From: a virus
Taxonomy: Duplodnaviria; Heunggongvirae; Uroviricota; Caudoviricetes
Length of the DNA stretch: 6,915 bases
Direction: 5' to 3' (one strand)
Virus record (IMG/VR): IMGVR_UViG_2713896896_000002
Span: 1-6,915 of that record
Below, in pieces: positions 1-6,915 of the stretch (position 1 is its first letter; every line of letters starts with the position of its first letter). Under the pieces are notes generated by a model. That model ran no database searches, was not told where the DNA came from, and saw only the letters and a program-made list of their open reading frames with translations. Position numbers and translations under genes: made by a program.

Positions 1-99
1 ACGCCTCGGGCTGGCTACTTAACCCCTGACCACTGCCTGGTAACTCAAAGTATTGCCCTGCGTTCTGTGGGGCGGGGAGGGTTGGTATGAAATAAAGGA

Positions 100-136
100 T
101 ACCCATAGGTATTCAAAAAGTAAATACCCATGGGTA
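100..136. promoter_or_regulatory. OL-like operator pair: two 12-bp palindromes TACCCATAGGTA (100-111) and TACCCATGGGTA (125-136)
   Basis: Second site is a perfect palindrome and the first differs at one position. Centres are 25 bp apart and sit about 45 bp beyond the 3' end of the repressor gene. The same TACC-N4-GGTA motif recurs in the repressor/cro intergenic region. Confidence 0.6.
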
Positions 137-178
137 AAATTTTGGGGTGTCTTAACTGGTGGCTGGTTGTTTGGTGAG

Positions 179-598
179 TTATGACGCGTTTTGTGCTTTC
201 TTTTTACGGATTTCTTCGTAGATCATATTGTAATACTGTTTTTTCTCTTCAAGAGTTTTTAATAAGTTATCCGTTTCACTTTCTGGCAGTTCGTCTAAGA
301 GATCTAAAAAAATACGTTGTCGTGGCGTTAGAACCCTTGTTTCATAATTGGAGGCTGTGTTCGTTGATGATGAAACGATACCATCCATCCATCCCCGGGG
401 TAACCCAAAGGACTCTTCGATAATCTCCACCATATCATCAGCGATCCGTTTTTTTCCTTTTTTCCCCTCTGGGTACAACATTCTTGATACATAAGAAGGC
501 TCGCGACCGATCTTTCTGGCCACGTTAACCGCTTTACCATCGCATTTCTCATCACGAATTTTGATGAGTTGCTGTCGTCTAAATTCATATTTGTCCAT
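179..598 (-). CDS. Prophage immunity repressor, XRE/Cro-CI family HTH, short form (139 aa) with no S24 peptidase domain
   Basis: ORF 179-640 on the minus strand. The HTH pattern (RRQQLIKIRDEK..GKAVNVARKIGREPSYVSRM...FGLPRGWMDG) fits XRE-family spacing if translation starts at Met15 (ATG = complement of 596-598); the longer ORF would start at 640 inside an operator. No Ser/Lys autocleavage domain: the protein ends about 80 aa after the HTH. Divergent from a cro-like gene, as for RacR/YdaS. No obvious SD for either start. Confidence 0.75.
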   Translation of the reverse strand: MDKYEFRRQQLIKIRDEKCDGKAVNVARKIGREPSYVSRMLYPEGKKGKKRIADDMVEIIEESFGLPRGWMDGIVSSSTNTASNYETRVLTPRQRIFLDLLDELPESETDNLLKTLEEKKQYYNMIYEEIRKKKAQNAS

Positions 599-699
599 AG
601 GTAAATAATAGATGCGATTACCGCAAGGTAAACAACCCATAGGTATTGACTTTTGTTTACCTGTGGGTATTCTTGACCGTAGTTTACTAAGGAGTAGCC
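599..699. promoter_or_regulatory. OR-like divergent control region: operator sites TACCGCAAGGTA (619-630, degenerate), AACCCATAGGTA (634-645), TACCTGTGGGTA (658-669); rightward promoter -35 TTGACT (646-651), -10 TATTCT (668-673)
   Basis: Three copies of the TACC-N4-GGTA palindrome lie between the divergent repressor and cro-like genes. A sigma70-like -35/-10 pair with 16-bp spacer overlaps site 658-669, and an AAGGAG Shine-Dalgarno (689-694) precedes the cro ATG at 700. The leftward repressor promoter was not confidently located. Confidence 0.6.
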
Positions 700-981
700 A
701 TGGAAGAATTAAGAATATTTCTCAATTCTCTTTCGTCAGATGAACAGCGTATGTTTGCATGTGAGTGTGGTACTAGCATCGGTTATCTAAGAAAGGCATT
801 GAGTAAAGGTCAAGTGTTAGGGGCATCGTTATGTGTCCTTATTGAGCGAGCCAGTAATGGTGAAGTTACACGTCAGCAACTAAGGCCTTTTGATTGGATG
901 AATATTTGGCCCGAGCTGGAAGATACCAAAACGTTAACACAACCACTTTCCAGGAGCTTGATTCATGATAATCAAGCATGA
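700..981 (+). CDS. Cro-like / YdaS-family HTH regulator (93 aa)
   Basis: First rightward gene after the operators, with a good SD. Sequence features (FACECGTSIGYLRKA..., ERASNGEV, LRPFDW) resemble the YdaS/Cro-like family as I recall it. Its 3' end overlaps the next gene by 17 nt. Confidence 0.7.
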   Translation: MEELRIFLNSLSSDEQRMFACECGTSIGYLRKALSKGQVLGASLCVLIERASNGEVTRQQLRPFDWMNIWPELEDTKTLTQPLSRSLIHDNQA

Positions 982-1390
982 GCACATCCGCATGGTGATG
1001 AATGCCTGGGCGCATCCGGACGGTGAAAAAGTTCCGGCGGCTGAAATAACCCGGGCTTATTTTGAGCTGGGTATGACGTTCCCGGAATTATATGACGACA
1101 GCCATCCTGAAGCCCTGGCTCGCAATACTCAGAAAATTTTCCGCTGGGTGGAGAAAGACACCCCTGATGCGGTTAAAAAAATTCAGGCGTTGTTACCAGC
1201 GATCGAAAAGGCAATGCCGCCTCTGCTGGTGGCCCGAATGCGCAGTCACAGTTCAGCCTATTTTCGGGAGCTGCTGGAGACGCGGGAGCGGCTGGTGAGG
1301 GATGCAGATGATTTTATTGCGGTGGCAATTGCTGGTTTCAACCAGATTAATCGCGGTGGCCCGGCAGGAAATGCCGTGGTGATGCACTAA
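965..1390 (+). CDS. YdaT-like protein (cII-position regulator of Rac-like prophages), 141 aa
   Basis: N-terminus MIIKHEHI... and overall size match my recollection of E. coli Rac YdaT (about 140 aa, starting MKIKHEHI). SD AGGAG at 950-954. Position immediately after cro is typical of cII analogues. Confidence 0.65.
   Translation: MIIKHEHIRMVMNAWAHPDGEKVPAAEITRAYFELGMTFPELYDDSHPEALARNTQKIFRWVEKDTPDAVKKIQALLPAIEKAMPPLLVARMRSHSSAYFRELLETRERLVRDADDFIAVAIAGFNQINRGGPAGNAVVMH
1225..1232 (+). other. Chi site GCTGGTGG
   Basis: Exact octamer on the + strand; two more copies occur at 6339-6346 and 6396-6403. Confidence 0.7.
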
Positions 1391-1413
1391 AAGCACGGTG
1401 TTCGGGGTTTTTT

Positions 1414-2376
1414 ATGAGCAGCAAGCTTCATGGTCTTGTCTGGGAAGGGTGTGCCTTCACCGGCATGATCTTATCCAGGGTGGCAGTGATGGCTCGTCTT
1501 GCAGACTACAGCAATGATGAAGGTGTGTCATGGCCTGCAGTAGAGACCATTCGTCGTCAGATTGGGGCAAAGAGTGAATCAACGGTTAAAGCGGCGATAG
1601 CGGAACTGGAAAAAAGCGGCTGGCTGACAAAGGAAGAGCGTAAGGTTGGCGGACGTAACGTAAGCAATATCTACCGGCTTAATGTGGAAAAACTCGAAGC
1701 TGCAGCAGCGGCGGCGCGAGAGGCATATAAACCGAAAAGAAAAATTAGCCCGGCAAAAAATGACCCGTTAACGGTTGACCCGTCAAATATTGACCCCTCA
1801 ACGGTTGACCCGTCAAATTTTGATGGATCAACCGTTGATAAAAAACGGTCGGTTAGGGGGGCGATGATTGACCCCGATCCGTCAGTATTAAAATCTGATC
1901 CATCAGATAAAAGATCTTCTTGTCCGGACGCTTCGCAACCGGACCCGCAGACGGCTGAACAGGATTTTTTTACCCGACACCCTGATGCGGTTGTGTTCAG
2001 TGCGAAAAAACGCCAGTGGGGAAGTCAGGAAGATTTGGCGTGCGCACAGTGGATCTGGGGACGAATCGTGAGTCTTTACGAGCAGGCGGCCAGCGATGAT
2101 GGCGAGATCACGCGACCGAAAGAACCAAACTGGACCGCGTGGGCCAATGACGTGCGCACAATGCGGATGCTGGATGGCAGAACTCACAGACAAATTTGCG
2201 AAATGTTTGGGCGGGTACAGCGGGATCCATTCTGGGTAAAAAACATCATGAGCCCGTCAAAGCTCCGCGAAAAATGGGACGAACTGGTCATCCGCCTGGG
2301 GCGTTCACCTGTACAGCGTTGTGTGAATCATATTTCTGAACCGGACACCGAAATTCCTCCGGGGTTCAGGGGGTAA
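1414..2376 (+). CDS. Replication initiation protein (lambda O analogue) with N-terminal winged-helix DNA-binding domain and DnaT-like C-terminus
   Basis: 320-aa ORF. The N-terminal region (VSWPAVETIRRQIGAKSESTVKAAIAELEKSGWL) looks like a winged helix. The C-terminal SEPDTEIPPGFRG closely matches the C-terminal end of E. coli DnaT as I recall it. Internal iterons encode a repetitive DPSNIDPSTVDPSNFDGSTVD linker. The gene is directly followed by a dnaC homologue, mirroring the host dnaT-dnaC operon. No clear SD for the ATG at 1414. Confidence 0.8.
   Translation: MSSKLHGLVWEGCAFTGMILSRVAVMARLADYSNDEGVSWPAVETIRRQIGAKSESTVKAAIAELEKSGWLTKEERKVGGRNVSNIYRLNVEKLEAAAAAAREAYKPKRKISPAKNDPLTVDPSNIDPSTVDPSNFDGSTVDKKRSVRGAMIDPDPSVLKSDPSDKRSSCPDASQPDPQTAEQDFFTRHPDAVVFSAKKRQWGSQEDLACAQWIWGRIVSLYEQAASDDGEITRPKEPNWTAWANDVRTMRMLDGRTHRQICEMFGRVQRDPFWVKNIMSPSKLREKWDELVIRLGRSPVQRCVNHISEPDTEIPPGFRG
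1760..1831. repeat. Iteron array inside the replication gene: five copies of TTGAYNNNTCAA-type 12-mer at 15-bp periodicity
   Basis: Copies at 1760-1771 (degenerate), 1775-1786, 1790-1801, 1805-1816 and 1820-1831. There is an exact 19-bp direct repeat AACGGTTGACCCGTCAAAT at 1770-1788 and 1800-1818. Each unit is an inverted repeat, TTGAC-CC-GTCAA. Confidence 0.75.
1832..1920. other. Putative origin unwinding region: A/T-rich tract with clustered GATC sites adjacent to the iterons
   Basis: GATAAAAAACGG followed by GATCCGTCAGTATTAAAATCTGATCCATCAGATAAAAGATCTTCT. GATC at 1876-1879, 1897-1900 and 1913-1916, with a direct repeat GATCCRTCAG. The layout parallels the lambda origin lying inside gene O. 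Confidence 0.55.
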
Positions 2377-2382
2377 CGAACC

Positions 2383-3129
2383 ATGAAAAATATTGCGACA
2401 GGCGGCGTTCTGGAACGTATCCGCAGACTGACCCCGCCACATGTAACCGCCCCATTCAGAACGGTAGCGGAGTGGCGCGAGTGGCAACTTGCTGAAGGCC
2501 AGAAGCGTAGCGAGGAGATCAACCGCCTGAATCGCCAGTTGCGGGTGGAAAAAATTCTGAATCGCTCAGGCATCCAGCCGTTGCACCGTAAATGCTCGTT
2601 TGCGAATTACCATGTACAGAACGACGGCCAGCGATACGCGTTAAGTCAGGCGAAATCCATCGCTGATGAACTGATGACCGGATGCACAAATTTCGCGTTC
2701 AGCGGAAAACCTGGTACCGGAAAAAACCATCTGGCGGCGGCTATCGGGAATCGCCTGCTGAAAGACGGCCAGACAGTGATAGTGGTTACTGTGGCTGATG
2801 TTATGAGTGCCCTGCACGCCAGCTATGACGACGGGCAGTCAGGCGAAAAATTTTTGCGGGAACTGTGCGAAGTGGATCTGCTGGTTCTTGATGAAATTGG
2901 CATTCAGCGTGAGACGAAAAACGAGCAGGTGGTGCTGCATCAGATTGTTGATCGCCGGACAGCATCGATGCGCAGTATGGGGATGCTGACAAACCTGAAC
3001 TATGAGGCCATGAAAACGTTGCTCGGCGAGAGGATTATGGATCGCATGACCATGAACGGCGGGCGCTGGGTGACTTTTAACTGGGAAAGCTGGCGCCCGA
3101 ATGTCGTCCAGCCAGGAATCACGAAGTGA
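2383..3129 (+). CDS. DnaC-family helicase loader (lambda P-position replication protein), AAA+ ATPase
   Basis: Walker [18 protein letters not shown] and Walker [10 protein letters not shown]. Strong end-to-end resemblance to E. coli DnaC as recalled (N-terminal MKN..., RSGIQPLH, C-terminal [22 protein letters not shown]...[10 protein letters not shown]). SD AGGGGG 9 nt upstream of the ATG. Confidence 0.92.
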
Positions 3130-3151
3130 TTTTTACCGGGAGGAAATTTTA

Positions 3152-3913
3152 ATGGAGACTGTTTTTGACGCACTGAAAGCGATGGGAAAGGCCACATCCA
3201 TAGAACTTGCTGCGCGACTTGATATCAGTCGTGAAGAGGTACTGAATGAGCTGTGGGAACTGAAAAAATCTGGTTTCGTTGATAAAACCGCGTACACCTG
3301 GCGTGTGGCTGGTAGCAATGCTCAGCAGGAACAAGCATCCCGGGCTGAATTTCATGAAGAAACTACCACGGCAACAGTAGCGAAAATCTCAGAGTGCGAT
3401 TTAACGGCGACGATTGAACAACGCGGACCACAAACGGCTGATGAGCTGGCTACGCTGTTCGGTATCACATCACGCAAAGTGGCTTCAACGTTGGCTCAGG
3501 CAATCAGCAAAGGTCGCCTGATTCGCGTAAATCAGAACGGTAAATTTCGTTACTGCATGCCGGACGATAATTTACCAGCAGAGCCGAAAGCCGCATTGGT
3601 AACGGAAACAGATGGTAAAGCCTTTCCTCAGCCAGCAGGTGTTGCGTTACCAGCACAGGAAACTGTAACACAGGAAGAAATTAAAACAGAAACTGTGGCG
3701 GACATTGTGCAGTCGCTGCCATCGTTCACCGAAACGCGGGCGGATGACCTGATTTTACCATCGCTGCATCTGGCAAACCGCGAACTGCGCCGGGCGAAAA
3801 ATCATGTCCAGAAGTGGGAGCGCGTCTGCGCCGCGCTGCGGGAGCTGAATAAACACCGGGATATTGTCCGACAGATTGTCGATTCCTCCAGTCGCGTTGT
3901 GTCGGAAAGGTGA
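3152..3913 (+). CDS. Hypothetical phage protein with two winged-helix-like repeats and a charged, probably coiled-coil C-terminus (253 aa; possibly DUF1627-like)
   Basis: Start placed at ATG 3152 because of SD GGGAGG at 3138-3143; the track ORF from 3101 would overlap dnaC-like. Two similar HTH-like segments ([30 protein letters not shown] and [32 protein letters not shown]). The family name is a tentative recollection. Confidence 0.7.
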
Positions 3914-3920
3914 GGCACTT

Positions 3921-4337
3921 ATGAGAAACGTTTTTACACCTGAATATCGGGAGCAACTGAAGGCGCGTATTGTGGAACTGGTGCGCAGAGATGGGAGGAA
4001 AACACGTAAGCAACTGGAGGATGAAACCGGAGCAACGAGACACCTGATAGAAGTTCTGGCGAAAGAGCTGGTAGTTAGTGGCACGCTATATGGTTCAGGC
4101 CATGGAATATTTCCTTCAGAACAGGCTCGTAAGGACTGGATAAAAGCCTGCAAAAAAATGTCGAGAGCGGCAGTGAAAAAGAAGAGCGACCCTGACCTGA
4201 TTTATTCATTGCCAGATGGTGAAATACGCCGTTACAACAGGAGACAGAACATAATTTGCCGAGAGTGCCGTCAGAGCGAAACTATGCAGCGCGTGCTGGC
4301 TTTCTGGAAGGGAAGTTTGCAGGAGGTGGTACTGTGA
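3921..4337 (+). CDS. Hypothetical protein (138 aa), basic, with N-terminal HTH-like segment
   Basis: Start at ATG 3921 with SD AAGGTGAGG (3907-3915) 5 nt upstream; the track start 3864 lacks an SD and overlaps the upstream gene. Tightly linked to the preceding ORF (7-nt gap), suggesting co-translation in one operon. Confidence 0.65.
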   Translation: MRNVFTPEYREQLKARIVELVRRDGRKTRKQLEDETGATRHLIEVLAKELVVSGTLYGSGHGIFPSEQARKDWIKACKKMSRAAVKKKSDPDLIYSLPDGEIRRYNRRQNIICRECRQSETMQRVLAFWKGSLQEVVL

Positions 4338-4464
4338 GCCAAATTAACAATCAGGACTGCGTGAAGTGAAAGAGAAAACATAATTCAAATCTGAATAATT
4401 AATCTCAGCACTGTAAATAAAATTTAATCCTTAACAGGAGGGATTCCTGCACCCTCAAAACATC

Positions 4465-4498
4465 AGGAGGCCGCCCGAAAGGGCGGTAATGAAAAATG
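4465..4498 (+). promoter_or_regulatory. Structured translation-initiation leader: SD AGGAGG (4465-4470), hairpin CCGCCC-GAAA-GGGCGG (4471-4486), start ATG 4496
   Basis: Perfect 6-bp GC stem with GAAA tetraloop sits exactly between a consensus SD and the start codon. Linear spacing is 25 nt, but about 9 nt if the hairpin is formed. A second weaker hairpin GAGGG-N9-CCCTC lies at 4438-4456. Confidence 0.5.
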
Positions 4499-4903
4499 AC
4501 TGAATTAACAAAAGAGCAATTAATCGAAGAAGCTAAATTAAAAATAGCGATTGCGAAATGCCACCCCAATTCAGGGGTGGCACGAGTAGAGGGTGAGTTA
4601 TTCAAAATTGCTCTGGCATCGCTGGAAGCAGAGCCGATAGCGTGGGAATACGGCGAAAACATAATCCTGTTTAATCCTGACACAGTTGAAGCATACGCAA
4701 AACGTGCAGAGATAACACCTAAACCTCTATTCACCGCTACACCTGTGTCACTGACACCAGAAGGATTGATTAAAGCAGTGCGTTTCTATGAACAGGTTAA
4801 GCGTGAAAATCCGCCAGTCGAAACCGGAGCATGGAAAGACGCGGTTGACTGGGTGCTCAAAGAGGCCTGTCGTGCAGCCATGCTTAAGGGAGATAAATCA
4901 TGA
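4496..4903 (+). CDS. Hypothetical protein (135 aa)
   Basis: Clean ORF. Its stop overlaps the next start in an ATGA arrangement (4900-4903). Preceded by a 158-bp AT-rich intergenic region and the structured leader. No family recognised. Confidence 0.65.
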   Translation: MTELTKEQLIEEAKLKIAIAKCHPNSGVARVEGELFKIALASLEAEPIAWEYGENIILFNPDTVEAYAKRAEITPKPLFTATPVSLTPEGLIKAVRFYEQVKRENPPVETGAWKDAVDWVLKEACRAAMLKGDKS

Positions 4904-5247
4904 TTAATCGAACCAAACTGGAGCACATCCTTGAGTATGCCTGGCAGCAGAGGCATTTGGGTCAGCACTGTAAAATTCCACCAGGAGATATGGTTGAAAT
5001 CGTGGAGATTGCCATGCGTAAGACTGGCAACTCTCCGGTAACTTCGGGCGGTTGGATAAGCTGTAGTGAGCGAATGCCAGGTGATGGTCAGCACGTAATT
5101 ATTTTATGTGATGGCGCATTCGTTCTTCATGCGCAATATCGAGACGGTGAGTTTTTCGATATTGTCCGCAATGGTAATGAATTTTTTGAAACACAGAGCC
5201 GCAATGTAACCGACTGGATGCCGCTACCAGAACCACGAAGGAGGTGA
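4900..5247 (+). CDS. DUF551-like phage protein (115 aa)
   Basis: C-terminal pattern GGWISCSERMPGDGQHVIILC...DGEFFDIV...VTDWMPLPEP matches my recollection of the DUF551 signature (W..P....V.....g....DWMPLPEP). Start overlaps the upstream stop, suggesting translational coupling. Confidence 0.65.
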   Translation: MINRTKLEHILEYAWQQRHLGQHCKIPPGDMVEIVEIAMRKTGNSPVTSGGWISCSERMPGDGQHVIILCDGAFVLHAQYRDGEFFDIVRNGNEFFETQSRNVTDWMPLPEPRRR

Positions 5248-5251
5248 ATCA

Positions 5252-5323
5252 ATGAGCTGGCCTGAGGCATTCACAACAGTAGGTATTGTACTGGCGGTGT
5301 ATTCGATTTGCCGCTGGGGGTAA
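5252..5323 (+). CDS. Small ORF, 23 aa, predicted single-pass hydrophobic peptide (MSWPEAFTTVGIVLAVYSICRWG)
   Basis: Not in the ORF track. Near-perfect SD AAGGAGGTGA (5238-5247) with 7-nt spacing to ATG 5252; stop TAA 5321-5323. It sits directly after the DUF551 gene in the same orientation. Confidence 0.5.
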   Translation: MSWPEAFTTVGIVLAVYSICRWG

Positions 5324-5329
5324 GGTATT

Positions 5330-5373
5330 AAAAAACGCCCCGCACACATAAGTTGGGCGCCTGAGATGCGGGG
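5330..5373 (-). terminator. Putative intrinsic terminator oriented for leftward (minus-strand) transcription
   Basis: 7-bp GC-rich stem CCCCGCA (5338-5344) / TGCGGGG (5367-5373). On the minus strand the stem is followed by CG then TTTTTT (complement of A-run 5330-5335). The loop is long (22 nt) and may fold further. There is no T-run after it on the plus strand. Confidence 0.4.
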
Positions 5374-5484
5374 ATAGGGAGTTGGTTAAATAGTTATACA
5401 ACAATACTTGATTTTGCATTGAAGCAAGGAGGAGATTGCCACATATTGAATCATGCACGTGTACGTCAAATGTGGGAGGTCATC

Positions 5485-5574
5485 GTGCTGGTTCTGAAAT
5501 GTGCGCTGGCTATTGCGGCTGTAATGGCAATTTATTGTCTTGTTATTGTTCTTATGAATCACCTCTCTGATTGA
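5485..5574 (+). CDS. Small ORF, 29 aa, very hydrophobic peptide (MLVLKCALAIAAVMAIYCLVIVLMNHLSD); candidate small membrane toxin-like peptide
   Basis: Not in the ORF track. SD GGGAGG (5474-5479) is 5 nt upstream of GTG 5485; an in-frame ATG at 5470 without SD would give 34 aa. Stop TGA 5572-5574. Composition resembles type I toxin peptides (single TM helix, short polar tail). Confidence 0.45.
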   Translation: MLVLKCALAIAAVMAIYCLVIVLMNHLSD

Positions 5575-5581
5575 TTTTATA

Positions 5582-5610
5582 TTGGCGAGGTGACGTGAGT
5601 TAAGTAGAAT
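5582..5610 (+). promoter_or_regulatory. Putative hok mRNA promoter: -35 TTGGCG (5582-5587), 17-bp spacer, -10 TAGAAT (5605-5610)
   Basis: Sigma70-like elements positioned so that transcription would start near 5617, at the GGGTGCTTGAGGC element typical of hok-family mRNA 5' ends. Confidence 0.5.
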
Positions 5611-5659
5611 TGCTGCGGGTGCTTGAGGCTATCTGTCTCAGGCATGAACACCAAAAGGC

Positions 5660-5750
5660 AGATAGAGAAAAGCCCCAGTTAACATTACGCGTCTTGCAGG
5701 ACGCTTAACATTAATCTGAGGCTCAATCCATGCTGAACACATGTAGGTTA
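5660..5750 (-). ncRNA. Expected position of a Sok-like antisense RNA overlapping the hok leader / mok-like start (boundaries not resolved)
   Basis: Inferred from the hok-family architecture. Candidate minus-strand promoter: -35 TTGCCT (complement of 5768-5773), -10 TAACCT (complement of 5745-5750). I could not identify a clean terminator, so the extent is approximate. Confidence 0.3.
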
Positions 5751-5786
5751 GCCTCTTACGTGCCGAAAGGCAAGGAGAAGCAGGCT

Positions 5787-5942
5787 ATGAAGCAGCAAAA
5801 GGCGATGTTAGTCGCCCTGATCGTCATCTGTTTAACCGTCATTGTTACGGCACTGGTAACGAGGAAAGACCTCTGCGAGGTACGAATCCGAACCGGTCAG
5901 ACGGAGGTCGCTGTCTTCACAGCTTACGAACCTGAGGAGTAA
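5787..5942 (+). CDS. hokD: Hok/Gef-family type I toxin (51 aa), closest in my recollection to HokD (RelF)
   Basis: MKQQKAMLVALIVICLTVIVTALVTRKDLCEVRIRTGQTEVAVFTAYEPEE carries the Hok signature (TM helix then RKDLCEVRIRTGQTEVAVFTAYE). SD AAGGAGAAG at 5772-5780. An in-frame upstream ATG at 5730 (track ORF 5730-5942) may play a mok-like coupling role. Confidence 0.85.
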   Translation: MKQQKAMLVALIVICLTVIVTALVTRKDLCEVRIRTGQTEVAVFTAYEPEE

Positions 5943-5950
5943 GAGACCAG

Positions 5951-6005
5951 GCGAGGGAGAAATCCCTCGCCACCTCTGATGAGTCAGGCATCCTCAACGC
6001 ACCCG
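5951..6005 (+). other. hok mRNA 3' structures: hairpin GCGAGGGA-GAAA-TCCCTCGC (5951-5970) and fbi-like element CCTCAACGCACCC (5993-6005) complementary to the mRNA 5' end (5617-5628)
   Basis: The 3' element is the reverse complement of GGGTGCTTGAGG at the predicted 5' end, with one bulged base. This is the hallmark 5'-3' closure of full-length hok mRNAs. The hairpin is a perfect 8-bp stem with GAAA loop. Confidence 0.6.
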
Positions 6006-6296
6006 CACTTACAACCGATGGCGCACGATACCAAATTATACAATTCTGATGATTCTGCCGTCTTTGCCAGCAGGCGCGGACGGTGTTTTCACGCATTCAA
6101 ATCTGACTGGTACCAGCATCCCCCATGCACTGAAGAACAGGCCGAATGGATAATTCAGTGTTACCGCAGGCGCGGATGCGAGGTTAAAAAAGCCCTTAGC
6201 CTCGACTACCGTCACTGGATAATCTCCGTCAGGCTCCCTTACTCCGAACGGCCGCCGCGTCCGTCCCGCACATTCCAGCAACGGATCTGGAGGTAA
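5979..6296 (+). CDS. Hypothetical protein, possibly Rem-like (Qin-prophage position between hokD and ydfU); 105 aa, or 92 aa from ATG 6018
   Basis: ORF with plausible protein-like composition (FKSDWYQHPPCTEEQAEWIIQCYRRRGCEVKK). Gene order matches hokD-rem-ydfU as I recall for E. coli K-12 Qin. No SD for either candidate start; the 5979 start would lie inside the hok mRNA 3' end. Confidence 0.5.
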   Translation: MSQASSTHPHLQPMAHDTKLYNSDDSAVFASRRGRCFHAFKSDWYQHPPCTEEQAEWIIQCYRRRGCEVKKALSLDYRHWIISVRLPYSERPPRPSRTFQQRIWR

Positions 6297-6297
6297 C

Positions 6298-6915
6298 GTG
6301 CGGGTATTACTTCGACCTGTTCTGGTACCGGAACTCGGGCTGGTGGTCCTTAAGCCTGGTCGTGAATCCATGCAGGTATTTCATAATCCTCGAGTGCTGG
6401 TGGAGCCGGAACCGAAAAGCATGCGCAGTCTGCCGTCAGGAGCTGTTCCTGCCGTTCGCCAGCCGCTCGTGGAAGATAAATCATTACTGCCATTTTTCAG
6501 CGATGAGCGGGCGATTCGTGCTGCTGGCGGCGCTGGCGCATTGTCTGACTGGCTCCTGCGTCATGTTAAATCCTGCCAGTGGCCTCATGGTGACTATCAC
6601 CACAGCGAAACCGTCATACATCGTTACGGTACCGGCGCGATGGTGTTGTGCTGGCACTGTGACAACCAGCTGCGCGACCAGACATCAGAGTCACTCGGGC
6701 AACTTGCTCAACAAAACTTGTCAGCATGGATGATTGACGTCATCCGTCACGCAATGAATGGCACACAGGAGCGGGAATTATCGCTGGCTGAATTATCCTG
6801 GTGGGCGGTCCGCAATCAGGTGGCGGACGCGCTACCGGAAGTGGTATTACGTCGTTCGCTGGGGTTGCGTGCGGAAAAAATCCGCTCAATGTACCGTGAA
6901 AGCGACATCGTACCG
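6298..6915 (+). CDS. DUF968/YdfU-like prophage protein, 5' portion (continues beyond window end)
   Basis: Open frame from GTG 6298 to the window edge (206 codons, no stop). SD GGAGG at 6289-6293. The GTG lies 1 nt after the upstream stop TAA (6294-6296). Cys/His-rich segment CQWPHGDYHHSETVIHRYGTGAMVLCWHCDNQ. The track ORF 6362-6733 is in another frame and looks spurious. Alternative start ATG 6370. Confidence 0.65.
   Translation, partial: MRVLLRPVLVPELGLVVLKPGRESMQVFHNPRVLVEPEPKSMRSLPSGAVPAVRQPLVEDKSLLPFFSDERAIRAAGGAGALSDWLLRHVKSCQWPHGDYHHSETVIHRYGTGAMVLCWHCDNQLRDQTSESLGQLAQQNLSAWMIDVIRHAMNGTQERELSLAELSWWAVRNQVADALPEVVLRRSLGLRAEKIRSMYRESDIVP
6339..6403 (+). other. Two Chi sites (GCTGGTGG) 57 bp apart at 6339-6346 and 6396-6403
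   Basis: Exact octamers in the same orientation as the site at 1225. Confidence 0.7.

Follow-up and report, generated by a model that had tools for sequence, protein, structure and literature searches.

The stretch of DNA analyzed here (positions 1 to 6,915 of the IMG/VR virus record IMGVR_UViG_2713896896_000002, hereafter the window) is the immunity and early-right region, 6.9 kb in length, of a lambdoid prophage. Region 1414-3129 of the window holds the replication module of this prophage, which is lambdoid and Rac/Gifsy-like; in this module, a gene for a replication initiator is followed directly by a gene for a DnaC-like helicase loader. It was found that the initiator is a lambda-O-family protein in which just the disordered last ~20 residues are similar to the primosomal protein DnaT, and that in related phages and prophages the type of this C-terminal tail is statistically linked to the type of helicase loader. 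As a module it is ordinary; cassettes of an O-like initiator and a DnaC-like protein are already annotated in Rac, in Gifsy-1, and in thousands of E. coli prophages.

The initiator, its C-terminal tail, and the loader

The features of the module are as follows (aa, amino acid residues; ORF, open reading frame).

1414-2376, + strand: replication initiator gene, 320 aa (ORF; PHROG 391)
1486-1626, + strand: winged-helix (HTH_36) core, aa 25-71 (Pfam), of an N-terminal origin-binding domain of about aa 1-105
1749-1838, no strand assigned: iteron array (repeat search and inverted repeats)
1880-1919, no strand assigned: A+T-rich dip with a GC content of 0.325, ~45 bp to the right of the iterons (composition profile)
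1957-2292, + strand: lambda-O-type C-terminal globular domain, aa 182-293 (BLASTP against lambda O)
2314-2373, + strand: DnaT-type C-terminal tail, aa 301-320, QRCVNHISEPDTEIPPGFRG (BLASTP against DnaT)
2383-3129, + strand: DnaC-like AAA+ helicase loader, 248 aa (ORF; YdaV orthologue)

The C terminus of the initiator, as read from the ORF translation, is ...VQRCVNHISEPDTEIPPGFRG, and an initial annotation of this DNA had described it as nearly identical to the C terminus of E. coli DnaT. The MG1655 dnaT-dnaC locus was fetched and translated as a reference, and pairwise alignment by BLASTP bore out this description: aa 301-320 of the initiator matched aa 160-179 of DnaT with 14 of 20 residues identical and 18 of 20 positive (pairwise E 1e-7), including identity at 11 of the 13 final residues. 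Nothing in the remainder of the initiator aligned with DnaT outside these final 20 residues. A phmmer search of 177,635 PDB sequences gave significant matches only to the DnaT entries 2ru8, 6aep, and 9zbt (E 0.015-0.047), and these matches run through the final 21 residues of the initiator. The predicted local distance difference test score (pLDDT) is below 50 for aa 298-313, and so the tail is predicted to be disordered.

The initiator carries the DnaT tail consensus RD.N..S.PD..IP.GFRG. Across 105 DnaT orthologues, residues R161, D162, N164, S167, P169, D170, I173, P174, G176, F177, R178, and G179 are 97-100% conserved, a level of conservation equal to that of the DNA-binding core, and DnaT proteins merely 32-40% identical to that of E. 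coli still terminate in IP.GF[RK]. Judged on sequence, the tail match exceeds chance: hundreds of homologues have the motif, which is near-invariant in DnaT orthologues.

The remainder of the initiator is of the lambda O kind. It is a full-length match to phrog_391 ‘replication initiation O-like’ (E 1e-114), its relatives in phage records carry the annotation ‘DNA replication protein O’ or ‘primosomal protein I’, and the N-terminal winged-helix DNA-binding domain expected of lambda-O-type initiators is present. The C-terminal globular domain, which has pLDDT values of 78-94 across aa 182-293, is 39% identical to lambda O over 112 aa (E 3e-25, BLASTP). In contrast, a Pfam search of aa 180-320 at E values of up to 10 found no DnaT domain (PF17948, the three-helix C-terminal domain of DnaT aa 84-154 that binds single-stranded DNA (ssDNA)), whereas the E. 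coli DnaT control gave 3.7e-21. An hhalign comparison of the C-terminal domain of the initiator family with that of DnaT gave a probability of only 0.2%, and the NCBIfam DnaT equivalog NF002770 scored the initiator at 16.4 bits against a cut-off of 201, covering only model positions 160-179 of 179. No acidic linker of the DnaT type and no homology to the DnaT N-terminal domain were found by BLASTP against DnaT or by NCBIfam. A DnaT-like identity of the whole C-terminal half was ruled out by Pfam, NCBIfam, and hhalign, all of which were negative. Therefore, the term ‘DnaT-like’ used in the initial annotation is accurate for the tail of about 20 residues but not for the globular domain, which is that of lambda O.

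The product of the downstream gene, which the initial annotation called a close DnaC homologue, is indeed homologous to E. coli DnaC, with 50% identity over 242 residues of the 248-aa ORF (E 2e-89). The homology is full-length and includes the N-terminal DnaB-binding region as well as the Walker A and B motifs of the AAA+ domain, and the N-terminal residues R10 and W32 are invariant in our loader alignment (A2). A study from 2001 attributed to Ludlam and colleagues is said to have found R10 and W32 important for DnaB binding. The protein passes the threshold of the NCBIfam YdaV-type, DnaC-related subfamily NF009043 (504 bits, cut-off 389), scores below that of the DnaC equivalog NF005931 (304.6 bits, cut-off 357), and falls in phrog_50 ‘DnaC-like helicase loader’; it shares 95.2% identity with the product of Rac ydaV and 55% with the Gifsy-1 ‘DnaC homolog’. 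These matches make the loader a YdaV-type DnaC paralogue and a predicted loader of DnaB. By analogy with lambda P, such a phage paralogue perhaps competes for DnaB.

The loader gene starts 6 nt past the initiator stop codon. The two genes share a reading frame and are separated only by TAA and CGA ACC (2374-2385), and so a single stop-codon readthrough or mutation would join the initiator and the DnaC-like gene into one protein.

The iteron array within the initiator gene consists of 5 overlapping 30-nt copies with a 15-bp period and a dyad-symmetric core, TTGACCCGTCAA. This DNA also codes for a linker of PSxxD repeats (linker aa 109-173, pLDDT below 50, predicted disordered), and the number of repeats differs between homologues. 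By analogy with the location of the lambda ori inside O, the iterons are a candidate origin, and the A+T-rich dip at 1880-1919 is a candidate unwinding region. Three GATC (Dam) sites lie inside 1875-1915, a stretch of ~40 bp, compared to a chance expectation of ~1 per 256 bp, and this clustering may tie methylation state to the firing of the origin.

Tail type and loader type

In an alignment of 30 members of the initiator family (A1), the body of winged helix, linker, and C-terminal domain is kept while the tail occurs in three forms: ...PD..IP.GFRG or ...DYS.IP.GFRG (hereafter, the GFRG type), ...HWNSPEAWENTL, and ...DW.DGIE.DL..GVLP. Because lambda O itself ends in ...LDLTNTDWIYGVDL, the second and third forms are counted as lambda-like. 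The GFRG tail, conversely, is found on bodies that are unrelated, such as those of P0074 and of phage Flotzy (which has a different C-terminal domain type), Rac YdaU (with its DUF1376 N-domain), the O protein of Gifsy-1, and initiators that have a genuine DnaT domain as their C-terminal half, so that at least 5 unrelated initiator C-terminal domains bear it. Among 51 distinct tail-coding sequences, every synonymous codon is in use where Pro, Gly, and Arg are fixed, while the amino acids are constant, indicating selection on the tail peptide. Judging from these sequences, the tail behaves as a separate, portable module at the protein level.

The relation between tail and loader was evaluated in a scan of one genome per species that yielded 79 loci, from each of which the tail was extracted and homologues of P, DnaC, and DnaB were sought within 4 kb on either side. 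The loci were sampled by similarity to the initiator family and are not phylogenetically independent. The two main classes gave the following counts.

Lambda-type tails, 11 loci: lambda P downstream, 11; DnaC-like, 0; none of P, DnaC, or DnaB, 0
GFRG-type tails, 52 loci: lambda P downstream, 0; DnaC-like, 1; none of P, DnaC, or DnaB, 51

As a swap control, initiators were used whose C-terminal domain is of the DnaT type: both of the 2 that have a lambda-type tail precede Phage_lambda_P, and the 2 that have a GFRG tail (P0306 and P0277) have no loader downstream. With these included, a P partner was present for 13 of 13 lambda-type tails and 0 of 54 GFRG tails (Fisher’s exact p = 4e-14, for phylogenetically non-independent loci). 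The tail, and not the globular C-terminal domain, thus tracks the loader type, and it is also the sole element that the window initiator shares with DnaT. The initial annotation had proposed a DnaC-type rather than a lambda-P-type route of helicase loading, and these comparative sequence data support that proposal.

A one-to-one pairing of the GFRG tail with a dnaC-like gene was ruled out, as only 1 of the 52 species-level loci has such a gene. For 53 of the 54 GFRG-tailed initiators, no phage homologue of P, DnaC, or DnaB was found within 2.5-4 kb on either side (two contigs were shorter), which implies that these initiators use host DnaB-DnaC. The failure of the one-to-one pairing led to this host-DnaC interpretation and to a reverse test, in which 80 viral contigs were taken that have a dnaC-like gene, one that either shows 48-58% identity to DnaC or is close to that of the window. 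In 72 of the 80, the dnaC-like gene is directly preceded, at a distance of -10 to +6 nt, by a gene ending in PD..IP.GF.G, and the upstream genes show at least 5 body types. As for the remainder, 4 upstream genes end in F[IP][SE]EDF, and 4 upstream ORF assignments were ambiguous due to short overlapping ORFs. A scan of viral contigs based on A1 returned only relatives 87-100% identical, which made it useless for covariation, and it was used to count the presence or absence of the DnaC-like gene: close relatives of the window initiator with room downstream (n = 78) have the loader in 55 cases and lack it in 23. These 23 have no P, DnaC, or DnaB homologue of phage type nearby, which likewise implies the use of host DnaB-DnaC.

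At greater distance from E. coli, the tail was found to decay as the loader diverges: an Aeromonas phage with a loader identity of 52% has PPGFN, and a Vibrio phage with one of 37% has PPGWE.

Several additional tails were seen. Acidic-aromatic tails occur at locus L160, from an uncultured Serratia metagenome-assembled genome (GGTDDDFI), and on the IMG/VR contigs L201, L205, L212, and L236 (...FIPEDF or ...FISEDF); they recall the C-terminal peptide of SSB, a protein that binds single-stranded DNA, and may be an alternative adaptor. A fourth class of tail (...W..IW.Q..EQ...) is present on related initiators from Providencia, Proteus, Yersinia, and Buttiauxella (L101, L103-L106, L108, L119, L144, L151, L153, and L154), none of which has a homologue of P, DnaC, or DnaB within 4 kb. 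Initiators with a DnaT domain, such as P0321, bear a fifth tail, which is acidic (...D.EER......D.SDRFDD), with no loader nearby.

A proposed role for the tail and its alternatives

DnaT is thought to recruit DnaB/DnaC, but how it does so ‘remains unknown’ (PMC13377028; PMC4132743). A 2026 cryo-EM study of the PriA/PriB/DnaT preprimosome makes no mention of DnaT residues 155-179 (PMC13377028), and entry 9zbu, for the mature preprimosome, lists DnaT chains of 154 residues; therefore, the tail is lacking there. In the literature searched, we found no described function for DnaT residues 155-179, nor for YdaU or YdaV.

The best explanation of the comparative results, which we regard as probable, is that an O-type initiator uses a DnaT-type tail to recruit DnaB bound by DnaC or a DnaC-like protein, and that host dnaT-dnaC is a domesticated relative of the phage cassette. 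In this model, the initiator would bind the iterons and open the adjoining A+T-rich DNA. The exposed tail, with the core PD..IP.GFRG, would then serve as a short linear motif to bring in host DnaB, held either by the DnaC paralogue of the phage or, in relatives without the paralogue, by host DnaC, and DnaB loading would follow. To the extent that sequence comparison can indicate function, the tail would couple an origin-bound initiator, or a fork-bound DnaT, to helicase delivery of the DnaC type. The comparative data thereby nominate the DnaT tail as a DnaB-DnaC recruiting motif, which would give this conserved tail a role. The restart-primosome-like route suggested in the initial annotation may hold at most for the final step, the recruitment of DnaB-DnaC; nothing found here points to PriA or PriB.

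A more specific form of this model is put forward tentatively. In it, the tail RD.N..S.PD..IP.GFRG would be the element with which DnaT hands the preprimosome to DnaB-DnaC, the same peptide would serve many initiators of enterobacterial phages, as a large class, to recruit DnaB bound by host or phage DnaC, dnaT-dnaC would be a domesticated cassette, and the tails would constitute a swappable ‘address code’. If such a code exists, GFRG would stand for DnaC, and W..PE.W..L or NTDWI.G for lambda P, and the tail would set the helicase-delivery system of a replicon.

Several points weigh against a DnaC-directed role of the tail. Most GFRG-tailed initiators are not beside a dnaC-like gene, and so the tail is not specific to the phage paralogue. 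Other tails precede some dnaC-like genes (GGTDDDFI in L160 and F[IP][SE]EDF on four viral contigs), and phages of Burkholderia, Ralstonia, and Pseudomonas, with loaders ~30-38% identical, bear different tails. DnaB, or a different factor shared by enterobacteria, could be the partner. For DnaT itself, Ducos et al. (2026) prefer the N-terminal domain as the recruiter of DnaB/DnaC, by analogy with DnaA (PMC13377028), and Liu et al. (2014) found that loss of DnaT residues 154-179 approximately halves ssDNA affinity and lowers cooperativity (PMC4132743).

A rather unlikely alternative, and the one that survives best, is that the tail docks a host factor other than DnaC, such as DnaB itself, PriA/PriB, or SSB, its association with dnaC-like genes being indirect, as all of these hosts use DnaC. 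A host-encoded partner is indicated for the 53 of 54 GFRG-tailed initiators that have no nearby phage loader, a direct DnaB-DnaT contact has been the subject of speculation (Liu et al. 2014, PMC4132743), and the acidic-aromatic tails that precede some dnaC-like genes resemble the SSB C terminus. Against this alternative, the tail diverges together with the adjacent DnaC-like protein: it is strict at a loader identity of 50% or more, PPGF or PPGW at 37-52%, and different at ~30-38%. The Vibrio phage, moreover, combines a PPGW-type tail with its own DnaC-like protein. Its host, following Brezellec et al. 2016, has DciA and is not known to have DnaC or DnaT. PriA or PriB as the partner is argued against by the absence of the tail from the 154-residue DnaT chains in the mature structure of PriA, PriB, and DnaT at a fork.

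It is improbable that the tail aids ssDNA binding or the cooperative self-assembly of the initiator or DnaT and recruits no partner. Compared with DnaT 84-179 or the full-length protein, DnaT 84-153 does bind dT30 with a Kd about twice as high and with a lower Hill coefficient (Liu et al. 2014, PMC4132743), but the tail is found on at least 5 unrelated C-terminal domains and is predicted to be disordered, and a generic role of this kind does not explain why it is strictly absent from initiators that pair with lambda P.

The initial annotation had interpreted the module as a captured host dnaT-dnaC pair, in which a DnaT-like tail was fused to an origin-binding domain. The identity of the tail to DnaT at 14 of 20 positions is in keeping with such a capture, as is the order of a tail followed by a dnaC-like gene, which mirrors dnaT-dnaC (the gap is 2 nt in K-12 and 6 nt here). 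We nevertheless consider it very improbable. The body of the initiator is lambda O-like and not DnaT-like, and the loader, at just 50% identity to DnaC, belongs to a separate NCBIfam subfamily of the YdaV type; this level of identity means that there was no recent capture. The combination of tail and dnaC-like gene is common among phages, in which dnaC-like genes associated with the tail span 48-58% identity to DnaC and accompany many initiator bodies, a diversity greater than that of the host lineage.

Transfer probably ran in the other direction, from phage to host. Aa 74-179 of E. coli DnaT match several phage initiator PHROGs through to their C termini (E 1e-27 to 3e-25). In many phage initiators, the C-terminal half consists of the C-terminal domain and tail of DnaT. 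Among 1.84 billion cluster representatives, searched exhaustively, only 176 relatives of DnaT were found, many of which are phage-type initiators of 270-540 aa with the C-terminal half of DnaT. The DNA of the host dnaT-dnaC junction also resembles the phage junction: GAACC.GACA.C.AAATTCC.CC.GG.TTCAG.GGGTAACG...ATGAAAAA. Enterobacterial dnaC has been described as domesticated from phage (Brezellec et al. 2016, PMC5109545). More likely than capture, the C-terminal half of dnaT and dnaC are both descended from a phage initiator-loader cassette; our data extend the published origin of dnaC by suggesting that the C-terminal half of dnaT came along with it.

Finally, it is scarcely credible that the conservation is at the nucleotide level, whether as a signal for the following gene (Shine-Dalgarno or translational coupling) or as a linker for recombination between phage modules: TTC AGG GGG TAA before the next start does resemble a ribosome-binding site, AGG and GGG are preferred codons, and the mosaic junction between the window initiator and Rac ydaU-ydaV sits in the tail-coding DNA, but synonymous variation is wide (4 Gly, 3 Pro, and 4 Arg codons) with fixed amino acids, and the tail is kept ahead of many unrelated downstream genes at gaps of -58 to +133 nt.

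Known systems and gene context

Among the closest known counterparts is Rac ydaU-ydaV-ydaW, which has the same gene order and neighbors, including the nearly identical YdaV and a DUF1627 gene (ydaW) next. Rac YdaU ends in LRQVNTVSLPDSAIPPGFRG, a tail of the same type, 6 nt ahead of ydaV. It differs in having a DUF1376 N-domain and a C-terminal domain with the motif FDP..W.EW..(F/Y)R, whereas the window initiator has HTH_36 and a lambda-O-type domain, and nucleotide similarity between the two loci starts only within the tail-coding DNA. In Gifsy-1 of Salmonella, the ‘replication protein O’ ends in GRDVNHISAPDKTIPTGFRG and is likewise followed directly by the ‘DnaC homolog’; unlike the window initiator, this protein has a lambda-O-type N-terminal domain and another type of C-terminal domain.

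Lambda O-P is similar in having iterons inside the initiator gene, a related C-terminal domain, and a loader gene immediately downstream. It differs in the end of O and in the partner P (PF06992), which is not an AAA+ protein, compared to the DnaT-type tail and DnaC-type loader of the window, and the N-domain of lambda O and HTH_36 are of different families. The window initiator thus departs from the lambda-O-type norm in that its next gene is DnaC-like and it has no lambda P partner. E. coli dnaT-dnaC shares with the window a tail of ~20 residues that ends the gene directly upstream of a DnaC-family gene. The oligomerizing N-domain, the acidic PriB-binding linker, and the three-helix ssDNA-binding domain of E. 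coli DnaT are all absent from the window initiator. DnaT is targeted by PriA/PriB (PMC13377028), whereas the window initiator would be targeted by the iterons.

The DopC-DopE system of Cellvibrionales and Oceanospirillales (Brezellec et al. 2017, PMC5509034) also combines an HTH_36 N-domain and a DnaT C-terminal motif in one protein, and DopC is encoded beside a helicase-handling gene of phage origin (PMC5509034). Unlike the window initiator, DopC is chromosomal, has a lambda-P-like partner, and has no iterons, and its similarity to DnaT by HHpred is to the 2ru8 C-terminal domain, whereas that of the window initiator is confined to the extreme tail.

The features of the window outside the replication module are as follows.

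179-640, - strand: ORF in the repressor position, 153 aa, divergently transcribed
700-981, + strand: Cro/YdaS-like gene (Pfam YdaS_toxin)
965-1390, + strand: cII/YdaT-like gene (Pfam YdaT_toxin)
3152-3913, + strand: DUF1627 gene, YdaW-like (Pfam PF07789, E 3e-95)
3921-4337, + strand: DUF977 gene (Pfam PF06163, E 1.6e-27)
5617-5942, sok on the + strand: complete hok/sok type I toxin-antitoxin locus (Rfam and Pfam)

The gene order of the window is that of Rac racR-ydaS-ydaT-ydaU-ydaV-ydaW and also that of the E. coli prophage L002. The ORF in the repressor position had no Pfam match at E ≤0.01, and its neighbors are YdaS- and YdaT-like. After the loader, the order is DUF1627, DUF977, and DUF551 genes and then the hok/sok locus, in which 5617-5792 fits the Rfam model for sok on the + strand (118.9 bits, gathering score 59) and a Hok/Gef toxin ORF is located at 5787-5942 (Pfam E 7e-24). 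The window is ~88% identical at the DNA level to prophages of many E. coli genomes, and the initiator is 100% identical to its counterpart on the IMG/VR contig IMGVR_UViG_2675903352_000017.

Five of the scanned loci (L091, L094, L128, L134, and L157) are enterobacterial prophage replication modules in assemblies that go under the names of Bacillota bacterium, Veillonella parvula, Martelella alba, Vagococcus sp., and Chryseobacterium sp.; these odd host labels are probably due to bin or assembly contamination and not to true host range. In L090-L094 (Escherichia albertii, E. ruysiae, and related), the initiator tail is identical, NHISEPDTEIPPGFRG, and the DUF977 gene lies 40 nt after the initiator; therefore, the dnaC-like and DUF1627 genes are missing there as one block.

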